Part shown: piece after piece, positions 4,471-14,438 of the stretch
Layout: each line of letters opens with the position of its first letter
How positions within the stretch are numbered: position 1 is the stretch's first letter
Virus record (IMG/VR): IMGVR_UViG_3300032315_000748
Length of the DNA stretch: 64,000 nucleotides
Direction: 5' to 3' (one strand)
Origin: a virus
Program-made: the position numbers and the translations under genes
The notes under the pieces: generated by a model
Database searches by the model: none
Told to the model about the DNA's origin: nothing
The model's input: the letters and a program-made list of their open reading frames with translations, nothing else

Positions 4471-4521
4471 TATAATAAATAAATAACTAAATAATAATAA
4501 GAAAAAGTATTTTTCAGTCAT

Positions 4522-6036: not shown

Positions 6037-6459
6037 ATGAGTTATGATAATCCTTGGTTATATCAAGGAAAGATTTTTGAGACAGAAGATATTGGAGAGC
6101 ACTTTGGATTTATCTACTTAATAGAGTGTGAAGAGAACAGTAGAAAATATCTGGGAAGAAAATACTTCTGGTCTTTTAGGACACCAAAAGGAAAGAAAAG
6201 AAAAGTAAAACAAGAAAGTGATTGGAAGAAATATTATGGGTCTTGTCCAGAACTAAAAGACGATATTAAGATATTAGGTAAAGATAAGTTCAAAAGAAGT
6301 ATTCTGTCTCTTCATAAGACCTTAGGTAAGACAAACTATGAAGAGACAAGATTGTTGTTTTTGAATAATGTTTTGACGGAAGCATTAGAAGATGGGTGTC
6401 CAAGATATTACAACTCAAATATTCTTTCAAGATATTACCGAAAAGATTACTTTAATTGA
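6037..6459 (+). CDS. GIY-YIG-like nuclease-domain protein
   Basis: GFIYLI...KYLGRK and YYGS motifs resembling T4 Seg/GIY-YIG proteins. Confidence 0.65.
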   Translation: MSYDNPWLYQGKIFETEDIGEHFGFIYLIECEENSRKYLGRKYFWSFRTPKGKKRKVKQESDWKKYYGSCPELKDDIKILGKDKFKRSILSLHKTLGKTNYEETRLLFLNNVLTEALEDGCPRYYNSNILSRYYRKDYFN

Positions 6460-6497
6460 CAAATTAATAAATAAGTTATGTGTTAGTAAATATTTCC

Positions 6498-7169
6498 ATG
6501 ACCCTAGATCTTCATAACTTTTTTAAGTATTATGATGATAAGAATCCAAATCACGTAGCAGCAGTTCAATGGTTAGAGGATAATCTACCTGCTGAGTTTA
6601 TGGATGATTCTGAAACAGAGTGGATAGGAATGTTCAGAACAAAACCTCCAACTCCAGCAGTATTGGAGGTTCCTTATTTTAATCAAGTAGACAACTACAG
6701 AGATGCACATAGAACTTGTAATAGTTCATCGTGTGCTATGTGCCTTGCTTTCCTCAAGCCAGGAAGTATCAAAGGTGATGACGAATATGTTAAGAAAGTA
6801 TTTGCGATTGGTGATACGACCGATCATGCGGTTCAAACCAAGGTTCTTGCAGGTTACGGTGTTAAGTCACACTTTAGTTATAATTTGAGTTTTGCTGATA
6901 TTGATAAGAGTCTTGATAGAGGAAAACCAGTTGTTATTGGTATTCTGCACAGGGGTTCTCTTACTTCACCTACTGGTGGTCACATGTGTGTTGTAATCGG
7001 TAAAACACCAGATGGTAAAGGATACTTTGTGAATGATCCTTATGGATCTCTAAATGATAACTATACTGGACCCGTAACAAACGGTAAGAAGACCGTTTAC
7101 ACCAAAGCAGTTCTTAAGCACCGTTGGGCCCCTGGTGGCACAGACGGATGGGGACGTATTTTTGATTGA
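6498..7169 (+). CDS. C39-like cysteine peptidase (putative cell-wall peptidase) with N-terminal domain shared with the lysozyme
   Basis: VPYFNQ...TCNSSSCAM, GGHMCVVIG, VNDPYG = Q-C-H-D papain-like residues. Confidence 0.8.
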   Translation: MTLDLHNFFKYYDDKNPNHVAAVQWLEDNLPAEFMDDSETEWIGMFRTKPPTPAVLEVPYFNQVDNYRDAHRTCNSSSCAMCLAFLKPGSIKGDDEYVKKVFAIGDTTDHAVQTKVLAGYGVKSHFSYNLSFADIDKSLDRGKPVVIGILHRGSLTSPTGGHMCVVIGKTPDGKGYFVNDPYGSLNDNYTGPVTNGKKTVYTKAVLKHRWAPGGTDGWGRIFD

Positions 7170-7187
7170 TACATAAGGAGAAAACCA

Positions 7188-7859
7188 ATGGCAAGAATCG
7201 ATTTACACAACTTCTTCAAGTTTTATGACGAGAAGAATCCTAATCACATCAAAGCAGTTCAGTGGTTAGAAGATAACCTACCTGTCAAGTATCTTGAGGA
7301 TAACATTGATTGGGCGGAGATTTATAGAGGAAAAAAGTCTAGTGCTGCACAAGCATCTACACCAACTGCTAGTGCTCCTGTAACTGGTGGTGATGATATG
7401 CCTATGACTGGTCTAAAACTCATTAAAGAGTTTGAAGGATGTCATCTAAAAGCATATCCAGATCCTCTGTCAGGTGGACTTCCAATCACTATAGGTTGGG
7501 GGACCACTCGTAAGAAGGATGGATCACCATTCCATATGGGTGATACAATCACTCAACAGGAAGCAGATGAGTTATTGATTACTCAATGTAAGAACCAGTT
7601 TCTTCCATCACTTCGTAAAATTCCACACTGGAATGAAATGTCTGATGGTAAAAGAGGTGCATTACTTTCTTTTGCTTATAATCTTGGTGCTGGTTTTTAT
7701 GGCAGTGGTGATTTTAATACTATCACTAAAAGACTGAAGAATAAAGAATGGGACTTAGTTCCCGATGCGCTTTACCTATACAGAAATCCTGGATCTAATG
7801 TAGAAGCAGGACTTGCTCGTAGAAGAAAAGCAGAAGGTGAATCTTGGAAAAAAGGTTAA
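7188..7859 (+). CDS. GH24 lysozyme (endolysin)
   Basis: LIKEFEG...AYPD...TIGWG, ALLSFAYNLG, GLARRRKAE. Confidence 0.93.
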   Translation: MARIDLHNFFKFYDEKNPNHIKAVQWLEDNLPVKYLEDNIDWAEIYRGKKSSAAQASTPTASAPVTGGDDMPMTGLKLIKEFEGCHLKAYPDPLSGGLPITIGWGTTRKKDGSPFHMGDTITQQEADELLITQCKNQFLPSLRKIPHWNEMSDGKRGALLSFAYNLGAGFYGSGDFNTITKRLKNKEWDLVPDALYLYRNPGSNVEAGLARRRKAEGESWKKG

Positions 7860-7877
7860 CCTATTAAACTAACAAAA

Positions 7878-8240
7878 ATGAACAACAAAAAGGAAAATGG
7901 TATGGGGCAACTAATTCGTGTTGTGATTTTGAGTTGGTCTGCCGCACTACTTACCGCAAGTTATGCTGGTATGTTTGCTAAAATGGATCCCACATTCATT
8001 GCTACAGTATTTACTGCATCTGCTGCCACTTTTGGTATTAATACAATGAAGAAAGGTGGAGATGATGACGATGAAAAAAAGGAACAACCACGCAGAGAAG
8101 AATTTGTAGAAGCACCTCCTGAACCACCTGCTTCACTAAAACAACCTGTTTCAACAATTGCTGAAACAACAGTATCTCTTGAAGAAAGAGTTGAAGCATT
8201 AGAAGAAGGACAAGTTCAACCTCGTACAGGTGGAGTATAA
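7878..8240 (+). CDS. Membrane protein, holin candidate
   Basis: Two hydrophobic segments then charged tail; directly after endolysin. Confidence 0.45.
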   Translation: MNNKKENGMGQLIRVVILSWSAALLTASYAGMFAKMDPTFIATVFTASAATFGINTMKKGGDDDDEKKEQPRREEFVEAPPEPPASLKQPVSTIAETTVSLEERVEALEEGQVQPRTGGV

Positions 8241-9180: not shown

Positions 9181-9599
9181 TGTCATTAAAGGATCCTTAC
9201 ATTTACAGAATTAAACAAATTTTAAAAGTAGTTGATGGTGATACGATTGACGCATCAATAGATTTAGGGTTTGATATTAGTTTAGAAAAAAGAATACGTC
9301 TTGCTGCTGTTGATACTCCAGAGAGTCGCACAGCAGACGCAAACGAAAAGAAATATGGTCTTGAATCAAAAGAATGGTTGAAGCATAAAGTAGAAAATGC
9401 TAAGAACATTTTAATCAAAACCGAACTCCCCGATAGCACTGAGAAGTATGGTAGAATCATTGGTCATTTATTCATTAACGACCAAGAGACATCACTGAAC
9501 GATCAAATGGTTGTTGAGGGATATGCCTGGCCGTACAAGGGAGACACAAAGAAGAAAAACTTTGCTGAGTTAGATGCCAAACGTACCAGAAATTCCTGA
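9180..9599 (+). CDS. Thermonuclease (SNase-like) nuclease
   Basis: KVVDGDTI, RIRLAAVDTPE, EKYGRIIG, GYAW. Confidence 0.9.
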   Translation: MSLKDPYIYRIKQILKVVDGDTIDASIDLGFDISLEKRIRLAAVDTPESRTADANEKKYGLESKEWLKHKVENAKNILIKTELPDSTEKYGRIIGHLFINDQETSLNDQMVVEGYAWPYKGDTKKKNFAELDAKRTRNS

Positions 9600-10308
9600 T
9601 ATAAAAACAAATAATATAGAAATACCAAAGGTGGAGGTTCCAGTTATTCGTAATCTGGAACCTCCACCTATTCTTGTACCAATCAATAGGAAATTACCAA
9701 TACCCGTTGTTGATGTTCCTATGGATGGTATTCCAAGTTATGAACCGATTGATGCTCCTACAACTGAACAGTTTAGGAAAATGATAAATGCTCAACAGGA
9801 ACCAAAGAAAGAAGAACAAGTACAAGACAAACCCAGAGCACTTCCAGATCTTAAGGGGATTACTGAAGCATTAAAACAAGTACCTCAAGTACCTCAAGCA
9901 TCTCAACCACAAGAACAAGTTGCTCCACCAGTACCAAAAATAGATGCTCCAACTATTACTGTCCCGTATATTGGGGCAATTCCAGTTCCATCCACCGAAA
10001 CTGTTGTATTATCTGGCACCACTGCTACTGCTAGTGTCGCTGCGGCTCTTATTGGTAAATCTATGGTGGAATGGTTGGTAGGAAAAATGAAACCTATTAT
10101 TAATCAGATCTTTATTAGGGGGAAACAATTGTTGAACCGAGATCTGACGCCTTACGAGACTCAGTTACTTTTTGCTTTGGAACTGGATAAGAAGACTTTG
10201 AAACTCTTGAAGAAGGAACAAAAGGCTGAGAAATTACGCCAGAAGCAGGTTTTTGTTGAATCACAACAACATCCGCACATATCTTTGCGTAAGGAGAAGA
10301 AGGATTAA
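9574..10308 (+). CDS. Pro-rich protein with C-terminal membrane segment
   Basis: Long Pro/Gln-rich N-terminal region, hydrophobic TTATASVAAALIG segment, basic tail. Confidence 0.6.
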   Translation: MPNVPEIPDIKTNNIEIPKVEVPVIRNLEPPPILVPINRKLPIPVVDVPMDGIPSYEPIDAPTTEQFRKMINAQQEPKKEEQVQDKPRALPDLKGITEALKQVPQVPQASQPQEQVAPPVPKIDAPTITVPYIGAIPVPSTETVVLSGTTATASVAAALIGKSMVEWLVGKMKPIINQIFIRGKQLLNRDLTPYETQLLFALELDKKTLKLLKKEQKAEKLRQKQVFVESQQHPHISLRKEKKD

Positions 10309-10819
10309 AGAAAATCCCACCTTTCATTGCTTCACCACATTTGAGTAATCTTACAAGTTCAAAATCTAATCGTGCTTTATCAGTTTCTGCTCTTTGTCTA
10401 GCAGTCCAAGTATCAGCAGCAGTCTTACATCTTTCTTGTAATCCACCATCTAATGGAAATGAAAGAGTTGCTGATAGTCCAAAGTTATTTGCAAAACTAT
10501 CTTTCTGACCCGTTCTTTCTAATCCATTAATACCTGTTGTCATATCATTATCAATATTTGCATATTCTTCAAAAGGTCTTGAACCACTTTTAGATGTGGT
10601 CATAAAGGGAGTAAGATTAAAGGTTGGACCCTGACAACTTACTCCACCACCGTATGAGTTGGTCACGTATGGACCCTGTAGCACCTGTACTGCCTGGTTT
10701 GTTACACTTCCTGTTGATGTTGCCTGTGGATTTGCAATCGCAGTTACAGGGGTATCCCCCTCTGCATACGCAGGGAGAACAAAGACACTTAGGGCAAGGA
10801 TTACTTTGAGACATTTCAT
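10115..10819 (-). CDS. Secreted protein with TolC-like beta-hairpin/helix signature
   Basis: Sec signal (AYA/E); PTFNLTPF...NNFGLSATLSFPLDGG then long helix; 4 Cys in mature part. Confidence 0.6.
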   Translation of the reverse strand: MKCLKVILALSVFVLPAYAEGDTPVTAIANPQATSTGSVTNQAVQVLQGPYVTNSYGGGVSCQGPTFNLTPFMTTSKSGSRPFEEYANIDNDMTTGINGLERTGQKDSFANNFGLSATLSFPLDGGLQERCKTAADTWTARQRAETDKARLDFELVRLLKCGEAMKGGIFFNPSSPYAKICADVVVIQQKPASGVISQPFVPSSRVSKSSYPVPKQKVTESRKASDLGSTIVSP

Positions 10820-10820
10820 C

Positions 10821-11180
10821 TTACTGGGTGAATACTGACATTGAATCCGTAACAGATTGAATTGTCGTGGTTCTTTCTACTGTTGTATCTTTAATCAATC
10901 CAGGACCCATATAAGTTTCTGAAAACTGAAATGGTTGTCCTTGATTCACAATACTATACTTTGTTCCAAGAGTTGGAGTTCCTGGAATATTAATATTTGT
11001 TCCCGTAACTGTATAACTAAATCCAGTTTGGAAATCTTGTTGTCTAATTATTTCATTTACTGTTGTGGTGGATTCAGTATGAGAAGTTACAGTACCACTA
11101 GTAAAGTTTGGTGTGACTGGCGCTGCTAGGGATGGTAGGGAAAACCCTAGCAGACAAATGCCTGCTAGGATATATTTCAT
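10821..11180 (-). CDS. Secreted Thr/Ser-rich beta protein (paralog of 11177-11671)
   Basis: Signal peptide (SLA/A); SYTVTGTNI, GQPFQFSET, C-terminal SMSVFTQ. Confidence 0.65.
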   Translation of the reverse strand: MKYILAGICLLGFSLPSLAAPVTPNFTSGTVTSHTESTTTVNEIIRQQDFQTGFSYTVTGTNINIPGTPTLGTKYSIVNQGQPFQFSETYMGPGLIKDTTVERTTTIQSVTDSMSVFTQ

Positions 11181-11671
11181 TTGAATACACTCAGTTCTGA
11201 ACTGCGTTGACCGATTGCAGTGGTTCCAGCACCACCACCAGTAACTGTAAGAGCACCAGTAGAGGTATCAATCGTACCTGCAAGAGTACCTTTCTCACCT
11301 GCTAGTTGTGTGGTGTTCTTACCATACAGAGTTGGTGATGCAATTGCACCATTAGAAACTGTCTGTGATGTAACAGTACTGTCTCCAACAGTTAGTGACT
11401 CTGTAAATGAGAATGCCTGACCATCATTGTTAATAGCATAAGTGCCAGCACTCATTGTTGCTGCTGCACTTGATGTGCCACCAGTCAATCCACCAAGTGC
11501 CGAGACACCGATGTTAGTTCCACCAACTGCGTAGGAACTACCAATTCTTTCTGTTTGTACCGCTGCACCCTGTACTGTTAATTGAACGGAATCAGTGATT
11601 CTTGATGTAATTTCACCTGCAAAAACAGGAGTAGTTAAGAATAACGAAAAGAGTAGTGTTAGTCTTTTCAT
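11177..11671 (-). CDS. Secreted Gly/Thr/Ser-rich beta protein
   Basis: Signal peptide (VFA/G); SYAVGGTNI, GQAFSFTES, C-terminal ELSVFK. Confidence 0.65.
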   Translation of the reverse strand: MKRLTLLFSLFLTTPVFAGEITSRITDSVQLTVQGAAVQTERIGSSYAVGGTNIGVSALGGLTGGTSSAAATMSAGTYAINNDGQAFSFTESLTVGDSTVTSQTVSNGAIASPTLYGKNTTQLAGEKGTLAGTIDTSTGALTVTGGGAGTTAIGQRSSELSVFK

Positions 11672-11727
11672 TGTTCTGTTAAATTGGATACTATTATTTA
11701 TTAATAGAATTTTTCAAATTGAACCAC

Positions 11728-11756
11728 TTGACAAATCATAAATAATCACTTATTAT
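11728..11756 (+). promoter_or_regulatory. Sigma70-like promoter for rlpA
   Basis: TTGACA-17-TATTAT. Confidence 0.7.
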
Positions 11757-11761
11757 GAGGA

Positions 11762-11876
11762 AACCCAAACACATTGGGTCATATCATGAGATTTTGATGT
11801 GAAACTTAGAGCCGTGGGCAATGCCTCCCGAGAGGGTTGGAACTTCTCCTTTGCCTATACGGATGTCGAATTCTAT
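11762..11876 (+). ncRNA. Putative structured 5' leader RNA of rlpA
   Basis: Three successive stems, including CCGUGGGCAA/UUGCCUAUACGG enclosing a CCC-GAGA-GGG GNRA hairpin. Confidence 0.5.
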
Positions 11877-11883
11877 TAAACTA

Positions 11884-12255
11884 ATGCTTTTCAAAAAAAC
11901 AATTCAAACCCTTTCGGTCATTGCTCTGAGTCTTGGTGCTCTTGCTCCAAGTCCTGCTCAAGCATTGACCTGTTCTTATGCCTCACATTATGGAATTGGT
12001 GATGGTTACGATGGTCAAAGAACTGCTAATGGTGAACGGTTTAATGCCTATGGTAACTCAGCCGCACATCGTGATCTTCCATTTGGCACTAGATTGAGAG
12101 TAACTAATGAATCAAATGGAAAATCTGTTGTTATACGGATCAATGATCGCGGTCCATATGTAAGTGGTAGGAGTCTTGATCTTTCTTATGGTGCTTTCTC
12201 AACGATTGCATCACCAAGTAGGGGAGAGATTAGGGTTTGTTATTCTAGACTGTAA
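11884..12255 (+). CDS. rlpA: RlpA-like lytic transglycosylase (DPBB) with signal peptide
   Basis: ASHYG, TANGERF, AAHRDLPFGT, INDRGP, LDLS. Confidence 0.92.
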   Translation: MLFKKTIQTLSVIALSLGALAPSPAQALTCSYASHYGIGDGYDGQRTANGERFNAYGNSAAHRDLPFGTRLRVTNESNGKSVVIRINDRGPYVSGRSLDLSYGAFSTIASPSRGEIRVCYSRL

Positions 12256-12289: not shown

Positions 12290-12718
12290 ATGTTTAATTT
12301 TAATTTTGGAAATAAAAAACCAGATATTAAACAATATGCAATCATAGGAATTATCTTAAGTTCTGTGATTGCAACTCTTACACAATGTACTGGAATAAAA
12401 GAAACATCTTTATGGGATGTATTTGATGAAGTTCAACGTAAGTTCTTTCCTCAGACGATGTTGAATGATTTCATCATCAAAGATCCCGAAAAATTGGATC
12501 GTAGGGTGAAGAGAGATGTTGATTTGGCAATTGCTGAGTATGAAAGATTGACAGGAGATGATGGAAAGATTAGGATGCCTAAACCACGATATTCAGAGAA
12601 ACCACCAGACGGGTCTTATGCCCAATCAGTTTTGGGTGGTGAAATGAGATTGTGTGCTCCTTGGGTAAACGATTGCCCCTTGACAGACCAGAATAATGCG
12701 GATGTAACTCAGCGGTAG
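12290..12718 (+). CDS. Hypothetical membrane-anchored protein
   Basis: N-terminal TM segment; 3' end runs into tRNA-Gly. Confidence 0.55.
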   Translation: MFNFNFGNKKPDIKQYAIIGIILSSVIATLTQCTGIKETSLWDVFDEVQRKFFPQTMLNDFIIKDPEKLDRRVKRDVDLAIAEYERLTGDDGKIRMPKPRYSEKPPDGSYAQSVLGGEMRLCAPWVNDCPLTDQNNADVTQR

Positions 12719-12769
12719 AGTTCCTGCTTGCCAAGTAGATTGTCGTCGGTTCGAATCCGATCATCCGCT
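12698..12769 (+). tRNA. tRNA-Gly(GCC)
   Basis: GCGGATG/CATCCGC acceptor, anticodon loop TTGCCAA, GGTTCGAATCC T arm, U73. Confidence 0.92.
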
Positions 12770-12826: not shown

Positions 12827-14320
12827 ATGAAATTTTTCAATCAACTGATGCTTGCACCTGTTGCACTTGGAATGATTGCTCCTACTGTTGCGAATGCTGC
12901 AGACCTTAATATTGCTGGAGTCAATCAATACAGTTCCTCAGAGCAGGTCACAAGTATCAGTCAATTCTCCGATGTTCAACCTACGGATTGGGCATATGGA
13001 GCACTGAGCAATCTTGTGGAACGTTATGGTTGCGTTGCTGGTTATCCTAATGGCACCTTTGGTGGTGGTAAGGCACTGACCCGTTTTGAAGCAGCAGCAC
13101 TTCTTAACTCCTGCTTGGATCGTGTTACTGAAGTCACCGATGAACTTCGTCGTCTGATGGCAGAATTCAAATCCGAACTTGCTGTTCTCAAAGGTCGTGT
13201 AAGTGGTCTTGAAGCAAAAGTGGGCAAACTTGAGGCAACTCAGTTCTCTACCACAACCAAACTGAAAGGTGAAGCATCCTTCATTCTTGGTGGAGTTCCT
13301 GGTTATACTACGAATACTGGCACTGTTGCTGGTAGCACTGCGTTTAACTATGACCTTCGTCTGAACCTGGATACTTCATTCACTGGTAAGGATTTGCTTC
13401 GCACCCGTCTGCGTTCTGGTAACTTCTCCAGTCAACCTTTCGGTTCTTCTTCGTCACTGTTCAAACTTGACAAGGCAGAATCTTCACAAGGTACTGGTAC
13501 TTCCAGCAATGTTTGGTTGGACCGTCTTTACTATCAGTTCCCTGTCAGCAAGAGTGTAACTTTGACTGCTGGTCCTCTGGTTCGTAACACTGAGATGGCA
13601 TGGGTTCCTTCTGTTTATAAGTCGGATGTTCTTGACTTCTTTCAACTTGGTGGTGCTTCTGGTGTCTATAACAAGGCAACTGGTGCTGGTTTCGGTGCTC
13701 AATATCGTCAACCAGGAACACAAGGTTTTGTTGCTTCTGTGAACTATGTTGCAGAAGATGGTAGCAATACTTCTACTGGTGAGTTTGATGCAACTGGTAA
13801 ACTGAACACTCTGGTACAGATTGGTTACCGTGCTCCTCAATGGGGTCTTGGTTTCGGTTATCGTTATGGTACTGAGGGAACTCGTGTTCGTAACTTTAAT
13901 GCTCTTGGTGGTGGTTCTGGTGCTCTTGCATACGGTCAAGTCTCCAACAGTTACGCATTCAATGGTTACTGGCAACCCAAGAAGAGTGGTATTGTTCCTT
14001 CCGTCAGTGCTGGATATGGTTCTAACACCATTAACGGTAATGCTACTGTACGAGGTGCTACCAACTCTAACTCTTGGTTCGCAGGTCTTCAATGGTCTGA
14101 TGTGTTCGGTAAAGGCAATGCTGCTGGTGTTGCATACGGACAACCTGGAAACGCACAAGGTCTGACTGCAACTGCTTCTATGTTTGAGGCATTCTACAAG
14201 TACCGTGTAAGTGATAATATCAGTATCACTCCTGCCGTGTTCTATGTTTCCAATAATCAGGCAACTCGGAATACTGCTTCCAATTGGGGTGGTGTAATTC
14301 AGACAACTTTCCGTTTCTGA
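12827..14320 (+). CDS. Cyanobacterial SLH-domain porin (SomA/OprB-like)
   Basis: Signal peptide, FSDVQPTDWAY SLH, TRFEAAALL, coiled coil, FSTTTKLKGE, beta-barrel ending TTFRF. Confidence 0.93.
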   Translation: MKFFNQLMLAPVALGMIAPTVANAADLNIAGVNQYSSSEQVTSISQFSDVQPTDWAYGALSNLVERYGCVAGYPNGTFGGGKALTRFEAAALLNSCLDRVTEVTDELRRLMAEFKSELAVLKGRVSGLEAKVGKLEATQFSTTTKLKGEASFILGGVPGYTTNTGTVAGSTAFNYDLRLNLDTSFTGKDLLRTRLRSGNFSSQPFGSSSSLFKLDKAESSQGTGTSSNVWLDRLYYQFPVSKSVTLTAGPLVRNTEMAWVPSVYKSDVLDFFQLGGASGVYNKATGAGFGAQYRQPGTQGFVASVNYVAEDGSNTSTGEFDATGKLNTLVQIGYRAPQWGLGFGYRYGTEGTRVRNFNALGGGSGALAYGQVSNSYAFNGYWQPKKSGIVPSVSAGYGSNTINGNATVRGATNSNSWFAGLQWSDVFGKGNAAGVAYGQPGNAQGLTATASMFEAFYKYRVSDNISITPAVFYVSNNQATRNTASNWGGVIQTTFRF

Positions 14321-14366: not shown

Positions 14367-14438
14367 TGCGGAGTGGGCAAGTGGTATGCCATCAGACTCA
14401 TAATCTGAAGATCGTAGGTTCAATTCCTACCTCCGCCA
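14367..14438 (+). tRNA. tRNA-Met(CAT), initiator-like 1:72 mismatch
   Basis: TGCGGAG/CTCCGCC-A; anticodon arm TCAGA-CTCATAA-TCTGA; GGTTCAATTCC. Confidence 0.88.

Follow-up and report, generated by a model that had tools for sequence, protein, structure and literature searches.

We analysed a 64,000-nucleotide stretch of viral DNA (IMG/VR virus record IMGVR_UViG_3300032315_000748; hereafter the window) around one minus-strand gene at 10115..10819, which encodes an exported protein of 234 residues. The protein belongs to the gp165 family of cyanophages. We interpreted it as a subunit of a conserved cyanophage cell-envelope module that breaches the outer membrane at lysis, a tentative reading to which we give a probability of about 0.4. 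Each day, phages of Prochlorococcus and Synechococcus kill a considerable fraction of the primary producers of the ocean, and we know of no described route by which cyanophages pass through the outer membrane of their hosts.

Identity and distribution of the gene

A preliminary description of this DNA had placed the open reading frame at 10115-10819 on the minus strand, and a frame of 234 residues was found exactly there. The product matched two PHROG profiles, phrog_848 (E 1.3e-69) and phrog_1755 (E 2.8e-59), both of function-unknown PHROGs. Its orthologues were Syn9 gp165, P-HM2 PHM2_195 (annotated as T4-GC 235) and S-RIM8 gp165, and the locus was syntenic with those of Syn9, P-HM2, S-RIM8 and P-SSP7. 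In addition to the profile match, the protein carried the four invariant cysteines of the gp165 family, and its gene lay 3' of a DUF6322-type gene. It is called gp165 below.

The closest DNA matches of the window were to the freshwater Synechococcus myoviruses DSL-LC02 and S-CRM01, and the neighbouring genes were those usual in T4-like cyanophages, which places the window in the genome of a T4-like cyanomyovirus. Its G+C content was 30–43%.

A tblastn search with the target recovered 462 phage records, all from phages of Synechococcus or Prochlorococcus or from uncultured marine viruses; the same search with P-SSP7 gp45 recovered 453, again exclusively cyanophage or uncultured marine records. 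Judged by these matches, the family is near-universal in T4-like and T7-like cyanophages. In a set of 5.8 billion metagenome proteins there were 3,309 matches, and the family had 312 representatives at 50% identity. The features observed in it are therefore far beyond chance. The profile of a 9-sequence alignment also gave 25 'bacterial' genome matches, all of which proved to be mis-binned or co-sorted phage contigs.

The window gene had a canonical ATG right behind the stop codon of the preceding gene, gp166, whereas many relatives had no canonical start codon before the signal peptide (for example L001 4863-5702, L045 3711-4595 and L047 2628-3239). In the annotations of these start-less homologues the N terminus is extended by 50–100 spurious residues, a product of out-of-frame reading of the 3' end of gp166, and the annotation of P-SSP7 gp45 omits the signal peptide. 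Reinitiation and frameshifting are two possibilities for their initiation.

A literature search on OMP1, DUF6322, gp165, signal peptides and lysis cassettes in cyanophages found no functional study. The gp165 family is catalogued solely as hypothetical, and neither gp165 nor its partners match a characterised system by sequence or fold.

An exported protein with an amphipathic hairpin and a long helix

Residues 1–19 (MKCLKVILALSVFVLPAYA; 10763..10819, minus strand) read as a Sec-type signal peptide with a Kyte-Doolittle peak of 1.76. Cleavage probably occurs after AYA, ahead of EG(D), which leaves a mature part of 215 residues. There was no lipobox. The counterpart PA.A motif of the cleavage site was conserved in an alignment of 40 gp165 homologues, on which all column statistics and statements of conservation below are based. 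In this alignment the four cysteines of the mature part, C62, C131, C161 and C181, were invariant (40/40), as were G114, G168 and D183. A fifth cysteine, C3, lies inside the signal peptide. The signal peptide and the four invariant cysteines bear out the export claimed in the preliminary description.

An AlphaFold2 monomer model built from the 40-sequence alignment had a mean predicted local distance difference test score (pLDDT) of 67.7, with values of 61–78 in the beta part. Strands were predicted at residues 53-56, 60-63, 66-69, 72-82, 106-116 and 119-122, followed by a single long helix at 127-166 (pLDDT 90–96) and a short 5-residue helix at 176-180. From about residue 190 the chain was disordered.

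The strands include a long amphipathic beta-hairpin, residues 66–123 (10451..10624, minus strand), with a variable acidic tip loop at 83–105. Columns 67-73 and 109-123 showed a strict alternation of hydrophobic residues with S, T, N or G, and nearly all columns in 23-76 and 108-123 were uncharged. The charged residues of the hairpin were restricted to 77-107, that is, to the distal strands and the tip loop. This loop was acidic and variable in length, resembling D.DG..DNPG, and in homologues it was enlarged by as many as about 80 inserted residues.

The 40-residue helix (10322..10441, minus strand) contained C131, C161 and an invariant RLDFEL.RL motif. The stretch between the two cysteines was exactly seven residues, or one heptad, shorter in P-SSP7 gp45 (L047 2784-3239) and in cellular homologues (L059 9069-9686), a shortening that leaves both helix cysteines on one helical face. 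The C-terminal tail, residues 191–234 (10118..10249, minus strand), was rich in Ser, Pro and Lys, disordered (pLDDT 51–57) and poorly conserved.

This architecture agreed with several points of the preliminary description. Both motifs quoted there were found, GPTFNLTPF spanning residues 64-72 and NNFGLSATLSFPLDGG spanning residues 111-126. The succession of an amphipathic hairpin and a long helix was seen both in the model and in the column statistics. The protein was a single hairpin-helix unit with no internal repeat, as had been stated. The amphipathic character of the modelled hairpin also supports the earlier view that it would need assembly to be buried.

Searches with the monomer model recognised no known fold in Foldseek, VIA or the ESM Atlas, the beta part of the query being at the pLDDT of 61–78 given above. 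The best Foldseek match in the PDB had an E of 0.31, and the best match in a VIA-wide fold search had a Z of 4.5, all matches there being single long helices. Weak hairpin matches were to pore toxins and the flagellar L-ring, none of them significant. In the ESM Atlas, shape and feature searches both led back to gp165's own viral hypothetical clusters and to nothing else. At the sequence level, neither the protein alone nor the profile of its family matched a known family in Pfam, NCBIfam or the PDB; the best PDB match was a haemagglutinin at E 0.71.

A translationally coupled trio of exported proteins

The gene was the last of a minus-strand trio, gp167-gp166-gp165. The first gene, gp167 ('OMP1' in S-RIM8; 11177..11671; phrog_564, E 5e-32), encodes 164 residues with a signal peptide. 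The second, gp166 (10821..11180; PF19847, E 1.5e-18), encodes a DUF6322 protein of 119 residues, also with a signal peptide. The two are paralogues (BLASTP E 2e-6). The hairpin of gp165 was also tried as a paralogue of gp166, and no relationship was detectable (hhalign 2%). The gp167/gp166 junction was an ATGA overlap, and the gp166/gp165 junction was TAAgATG, with a single base between stop and start. Because of these junctions, the trio is translationally coupled.

The AlphaFold2 model of gp166, from a 24-sequence alignment, had a mean pLDDT of 80.8. Its strands at 28-51, 55-61, 85-91 and 94-118 formed one giant beta-hairpin (28-61 and 85-118). The closest solved shapes, by weak matches, were the pore stems of lysenin, aerolysin, anthrax protective antigen and iota-toxin, and the tubes that hairpins form in phi29-like tails, all of them structures that occur solely as oligomeric barrels.

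A TAAATA box resembling a late promoter lay at 11695..11700 on the minus strand, 24–29 nt 5' of the first ATG of the trio. Over the whole window the motif showed no enrichment (85 occurrences against 97 expected), and it is suggestive only in where it lies with respect to start codons. TAAATA boxes also occurred 20–35 nt before many plus-strand start codons (2709, 4476-4493, 6468, 12260, 12790 and 14441), a recurrence that fits T4-type late promoters. The orthologues in P-HM2, PHM2_191-197, are expressed late or mid-late (PMC5082946, supplement).

Linkage to a wider module

Convergent with the trio was a gp164-like gene (9574..10308, plus strand; phrog_9426; BLASTP against P-SSP7 gp42, E 3e-5), which encodes a Pro-rich, C-terminally anchored protein of 244 residues. 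Its N-terminal 145 residues were acidic, with 28 prolines and a net charge of -5. They were followed by a transmembrane-like segment at 143–170 and a basic tail with a net charge of +8. By the positive-inside rule, the protein would be oriented with the N terminus out and the C terminus in. The gene was of the podovirus type (phrog_9426), as against the Syn9 type (phrog_570). Its 3' end on the plus strand overlapped the gp165 disordered tail on the minus strand by 194 nt (10115-10308). In DSL-LC02 the gp164-like gene is co-directional and lies 3' of a shorter gp165 (L049 5923-6980).

A DUF6450 protein was encoded at 7878..8240 on the plus strand (PF20048, E 1.2e-16; P-SSP7 gp43, E 1e-11). Two hydrophobic segments were seen in it by eye, one of which was flagged by the scan. 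Directly before it was an endolysin pair (6480..7859, plus strand; PF13529, PF00959; PHROG endolysin families), comprising a C39-like peptidase at 6480-7169 and a GH24 lysozyme at 7188-7859. The three genes were thus contiguous at 6480-8240, 2 kb from the trio.

Both endolysins started with a common N-terminal domain of about 55 residues (DLHNFFK.YD.KNPNH..AVQWLEDNLP), and the PHROG profiles 3617 and 10051 spanned both genes. From their sequences, the two look like a two-enzyme endolysin that is split here, or fused elsewhere. A SegE-type GIY-YIG homing endonuclease gene (6037-6459, plus strand; PF19835, E 4e-51) was inserted directly 5' of the pair.

In the podovirus P-SSP7, the counterparts gp42-gp45 form an uninterrupted block, with the tail fibre gene on one side and the small terminase gene on the other. 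P-SSP7 gp45 aligned with the gp165 family at an hhalign probability of 99.7%, gp44 resembled gp166, and gp42 belonged to the same PHROG (phrog_9426) as the gp164-like frame of the window. In T7, the slot between tail fibre and small terminase holds the holin 17.5 and the spanins 18.5/18.7.

Linkage was surveyed by tblastn over 31 loci. DUF6450 lay near gp165 in 26 of them, and the podovirus-type loci had the contiguous order gp164-DUF6450-gp166-gp165. In two loci (L004 and L005) a C39 endolysin-like gene adjoined the module. Despite changes of orientation, gp164 stayed adjacent: it is convergent in the window and in Syn9, runs in the same direction in DSL-LC02 and lies upstream in the podoviruses. 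S-PM2 lacked gp165, DUF6322 and DUF6450, all three together; this phage has been called the 'odd one out' among cyanomyoviruses (PMC3037559).

Proposed role in lysis

We propose that gp165 would be synthesized late from the coupled operon, exported by the Sec route and held together by two disulfides, probably C62-C131, where the hairpin has its base, and C161-C181, at the distal end of the helix. The exposed, charge-free amphipathic hairpin would be unstable alone, and gp165 would join gp166 and gp167 in an oligomer of the beta-barrel type, inserted in the outer membrane or lying on it. The 40-residue helix and the C-terminal knob would then be directed into the periplasm. The inner-membrane side would be supplied by the Pro-rich anchored gp164-like protein and the DUF6450 protein with its two putative transmembrane segments. 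The insertion into the membrane, the stoichiometry and the contacts between the proteins are likewise putative. The most likely job of such an assembly would be the final step of lysis, the breach of the outer membrane, in phages without recognisable spanins.

Kongari et al. (2018) surveyed phages systematically for spanins and detected none in 20 that had been isolated on Prochlorococcus or Synechococcus, P-SSP7, Syn9, P-HM1/2 and S-SM1 among them (PMC6139136). The authors speculated that a C-terminally anchored inner-membrane protein together with an outer-membrane protein could replace spanins (PMC6139136). The gp165 module fits this description of a spanin substitute.

A more specific version of the proposal appears doubtful to us. 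In it, gp164-gp167 and DUF6450 would form a trans-envelope machine whose exported hairpins assemble as a hetero-oligomeric beta-barrel and perforate the outer membrane from inside. Spanins and disruptin would then be joined by a third class of outer-membrane lysis system, and the cyanobacterial relatives described below may have been recruited to serve the cell.

Several observations weigh against a role in lysis. Besides lacking a lipobox, gp165 had no C-terminal aromatic beta-signal for entry into the outer membrane. The fold matches were below significance (for gp166, Foldseek E>=0.008 and VIA Z<=4.5). DUF6450 is holin-like by position only. No recognisable endolysin was present in the 8–8.5 kb viewed around the module in Syn9 and P-HM2. 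The P-HM2 orthologue of gp165 itself was clustered as 'Mid (C)' (PMC5082946, supplement). Finally, distant homologues of gp165 occurred in cyanobacterial chromosomal operons beside housekeeping genes, with hairpin-like partners and without phage context.

Cyanobacterial homologues and a possible non-lytic role

A profile search of 400 cyanobacterial genomes found the C-terminal half of gp165 (strand, helix and knob) in seven of them, a weak but real similarity. A cellular homologue aligned with gp165 at an hhalign probability of 95.4%. In two cellular operons (L058 9081-10119, minus strand; L059 9069-11218, plus strand) a four-cysteine gp165 homologue of 205 residues came first. It was followed by one or two exported S/T/N-rich proteins of 126–147 residues and a membrane protein of about 155 residues, the whole set among tRNA-synthetase and primase genes. 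The cellular partner was tried as a homologue of gp166 and rejected (hhalign 1%), the two being alike in size, composition and position only.

A dedicated lysis device is unexpected in chromosomal housekeeping operons. For this reason a non-lytic envelope structure stays a serious rival, although we regard it as somewhat doubtful. In such a structure, gp165 with gp166 and gp167 would serve as an outer-membrane channel, conduit or surface appendage, with DUF6450 and gp164 as its inner-membrane parts. Possible uses are the passage of nutrients or solutes, the masking of receptors against superinfection, and a cell-surface fibre. The conserved small operon of the cyanobacterial homologues, free of phage genes, is in line with this, as is the presence of an SLH-OprB porin and an RlpA-like exported protein in the same phage region. 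Two paralogous S/T/G-rich secreted subunits with a distinct third protein recall fibre-secretion systems, and the high variability and acidity of the gp165 tip loop would suit a surface-exposed loop.

On the other hand, expression is late, so that any physiological benefit would have little time to act. In P-SSP7 the module is found at the position of the T7 lysis genes, and several loci have it next to endolysin genes. Pfam searches with the window protein and 40 family members found no usher, secretin, BAM-type beta-signal or amyloid repeat. Should the module prove non-lytic, it would still be a widespread envelope system, common to phages and some cyanobacteria.

A possible regulatory role and the comparison with TolC

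T4 has an RI-type antiholin system that senses superinfection, and the window derives from a T4-like phage. A periplasmic regulator of lysis timing like T4 RI, bound to the periplasmic face of DUF6450 and staying out of the outer membrane, would accord with the export of gp165, its four invariant cysteines and its tight linkage to, and joint absence with, the DUF6450 protein with its two putative transmembrane segments. We consider this improbable. Three to four exported proteins, with two giant hairpins, far exceed the needs of a sensor, and an amphipathic hairpin free of charges speaks for burial, in an assembly or in a membrane. The module also occurs in T7-like podoviruses, for which we know of no reports of lysis inhibition.

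The preliminary description had taken the protein for a half-TolC, related to the outer-membrane efflux protein (OEP) family PF02321. This family gave no Pfam match to gp165 at E<=1 and none to the 40 family members at E<=10, and the NCBIfam search with gp165 gave no match. For a profile comparison, an OEP alignment was made from six TolC-family genes of two bacterial genomes. The gp165 core aligned with the six OEP proteins at hhalign probabilities of 4.6–8.6%, compared with 99.3% (E 1.9e-20) for the control, the OEP N-repeat against the C-repeat. The best local alignment was the very motif that had been pointed out before (FGLSATLSFPLDGG against OEP SVGVQLSVPILNG).

The repeat of TolC consists of a helix, a two-strand hairpin, a long helix and a returning helix, and each chain has two such repeats. 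In the gp165 model there was no helix before the hairpin and one after it, which fails this layout. Chains of the TolC family were absent among the Foldseek PDB and VIA matches listed for the monomer model, itself of moderate confidence. The preliminary description had named two results that would count against a kinship with TolC. One of them, the lack of an OEP match, was found; the other, a fold without an amphipathic hairpin, was not, a hairpin of this kind being predicted nonetheless.

A divergent single-repeat OEP member, forming a hexamer or larger assembly with a beta-barrel and a helical tunnel, is very improbable and as a matter of homology close to refuted: the best hhalign stretch falls exactly on the motif, second strand and helix start against OEP strand S2/S5 and helix, and the hairpin-then-helix order and periplasmic disulfides are compatible with it, but the probabilities are 5–9% against 99.3% for the control, the family has no PF02321 or PDB sequence match, the model lacks the preceding helix, the returning helix and the equatorial domain, and no TolC chain appears among the listed structural matches. 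What the two have in common is a local pattern in which an amphipathic strand leads into a helix. Homology is not demonstrable for it, and the TolC label should be dropped.

Significance of the module

The gp165 module is nearly universal, exported and late, sits in the holin/spanin slot of T7 in P-SSP7 and belongs to no characterised family. If it supplies the missing outer-membrane step of cyanophage lysis, this question becomes directly testable, and a new route would be at hand to membrane-active beta-barrels built from separate hairpin subunits. If it is a trans-envelope machine, it would explain how progeny of the ocean's most abundant phages are released.

Neighbouring envelope genes

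Other envelope genes lay on the plus strand beyond the trio. An exported RlpA-like DPBB protein (11821-12255; TIGR00413, E 3.6e-27) was encoded divergently from the trio, and a near-consensus sigma-70-type promoter, TTGACA-17-TATTAT, was present at 11728-11756. The next gene (12290-12718; phrog_3316, function unknown) encodes a protein of 142 residues whose N-terminal hydrophobic segment ends in ATLTQC and which has two more cysteines. This lipobox-like motif is non-canonical; going by it, the protein may be a lipoprotein beside the envelope module.

At 12827-14320 was a gene for a full-length porin of the cyanobacterial outer-membrane type, 497 residues long, with a signal peptide, an SLH domain and an OprB barrel. 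It was flanked by tRNA-Gly (12698-12769) and tRNA-Met (14367-14438), and its G+C content of 43% was above that of its surroundings. It looks like a host-derived envelope gene.

Comparison with known systems

The likeness to TolC and other OEP proteins is limited to general features. Like them, gp165 is an exported envelope protein in which an amphipathic strand of the pattern G.S.S.P runs straight into a long helix, and its hairpin, as that of TolC, would need completion by other subunits. It differs in having no significant sequence or profile similarity, one hairpin with one 40-residue helix in place of two helix-hairpin-helix-helix repeats, and no equatorial domain. It also has four invariant cysteines and is essentially restricted to cyanophages.

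The two-component spanins (lambda Rz/Rz1, T7 gp18.5/18.7 and T4 PseT.3/PseT.2) are likewise late exported phage proteins with disulfides. As with spanins, the gp165 module is linked genetically to a small membrane protein and, at some loci, to an endolysin, it lies in the T7 spanin slot in P-SSP7, and it would pair an inner-membrane-anchored partner with an outer-membrane-directed one. The differences are in the parts. The signal peptide of gp165 is of the signal-peptidase-I type, with no lipobox and no Cys at +1 as in an o-spanin, and the 215-residue mature part has a structured hairpin and helix. The gp164-like partner is Pro-rich with a C-terminal anchor, whereas an i-spanin is an N-anchored coiled coil; its sole transmembrane-like segment is at 143-170 of 244 residues, and the 145 residues before it are, by composition, non-helical. 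The module has additional giant-hairpin subunits and no sequence similarity to spanins.

The stems of pore-forming toxins (aerolysin, lysenin, anthrax protective antigen and alpha-haemolysin) share with the module, as predicted, long two-stranded hairpins with an alternation of hydrophobic and Ser/Thr residues. Such stem hairpins exist only inside oligomeric barrels. For the gp166 model and the gp165 model alike, pore-toxin stems ranked first among the structural neighbours, although the matches were weak and not significant (E>=0.008, Z<=4.5). The module differs from the toxins in having no cap or receptor-binding domain, and a Pfam search with the 40 members of the gp165 family found no toxin family and no cap domain. 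It is also multi-component and would work from within the periplasm of the cell that makes it.

The direct counterparts of the module are the 'nearly core' hypothetical genes of cyanophages, Syn9 gp164-gp167, P-HM2 T4-GC 234-237 and P-SSP7 gp42-gp45, which are its orthologues with identical order and coupling.

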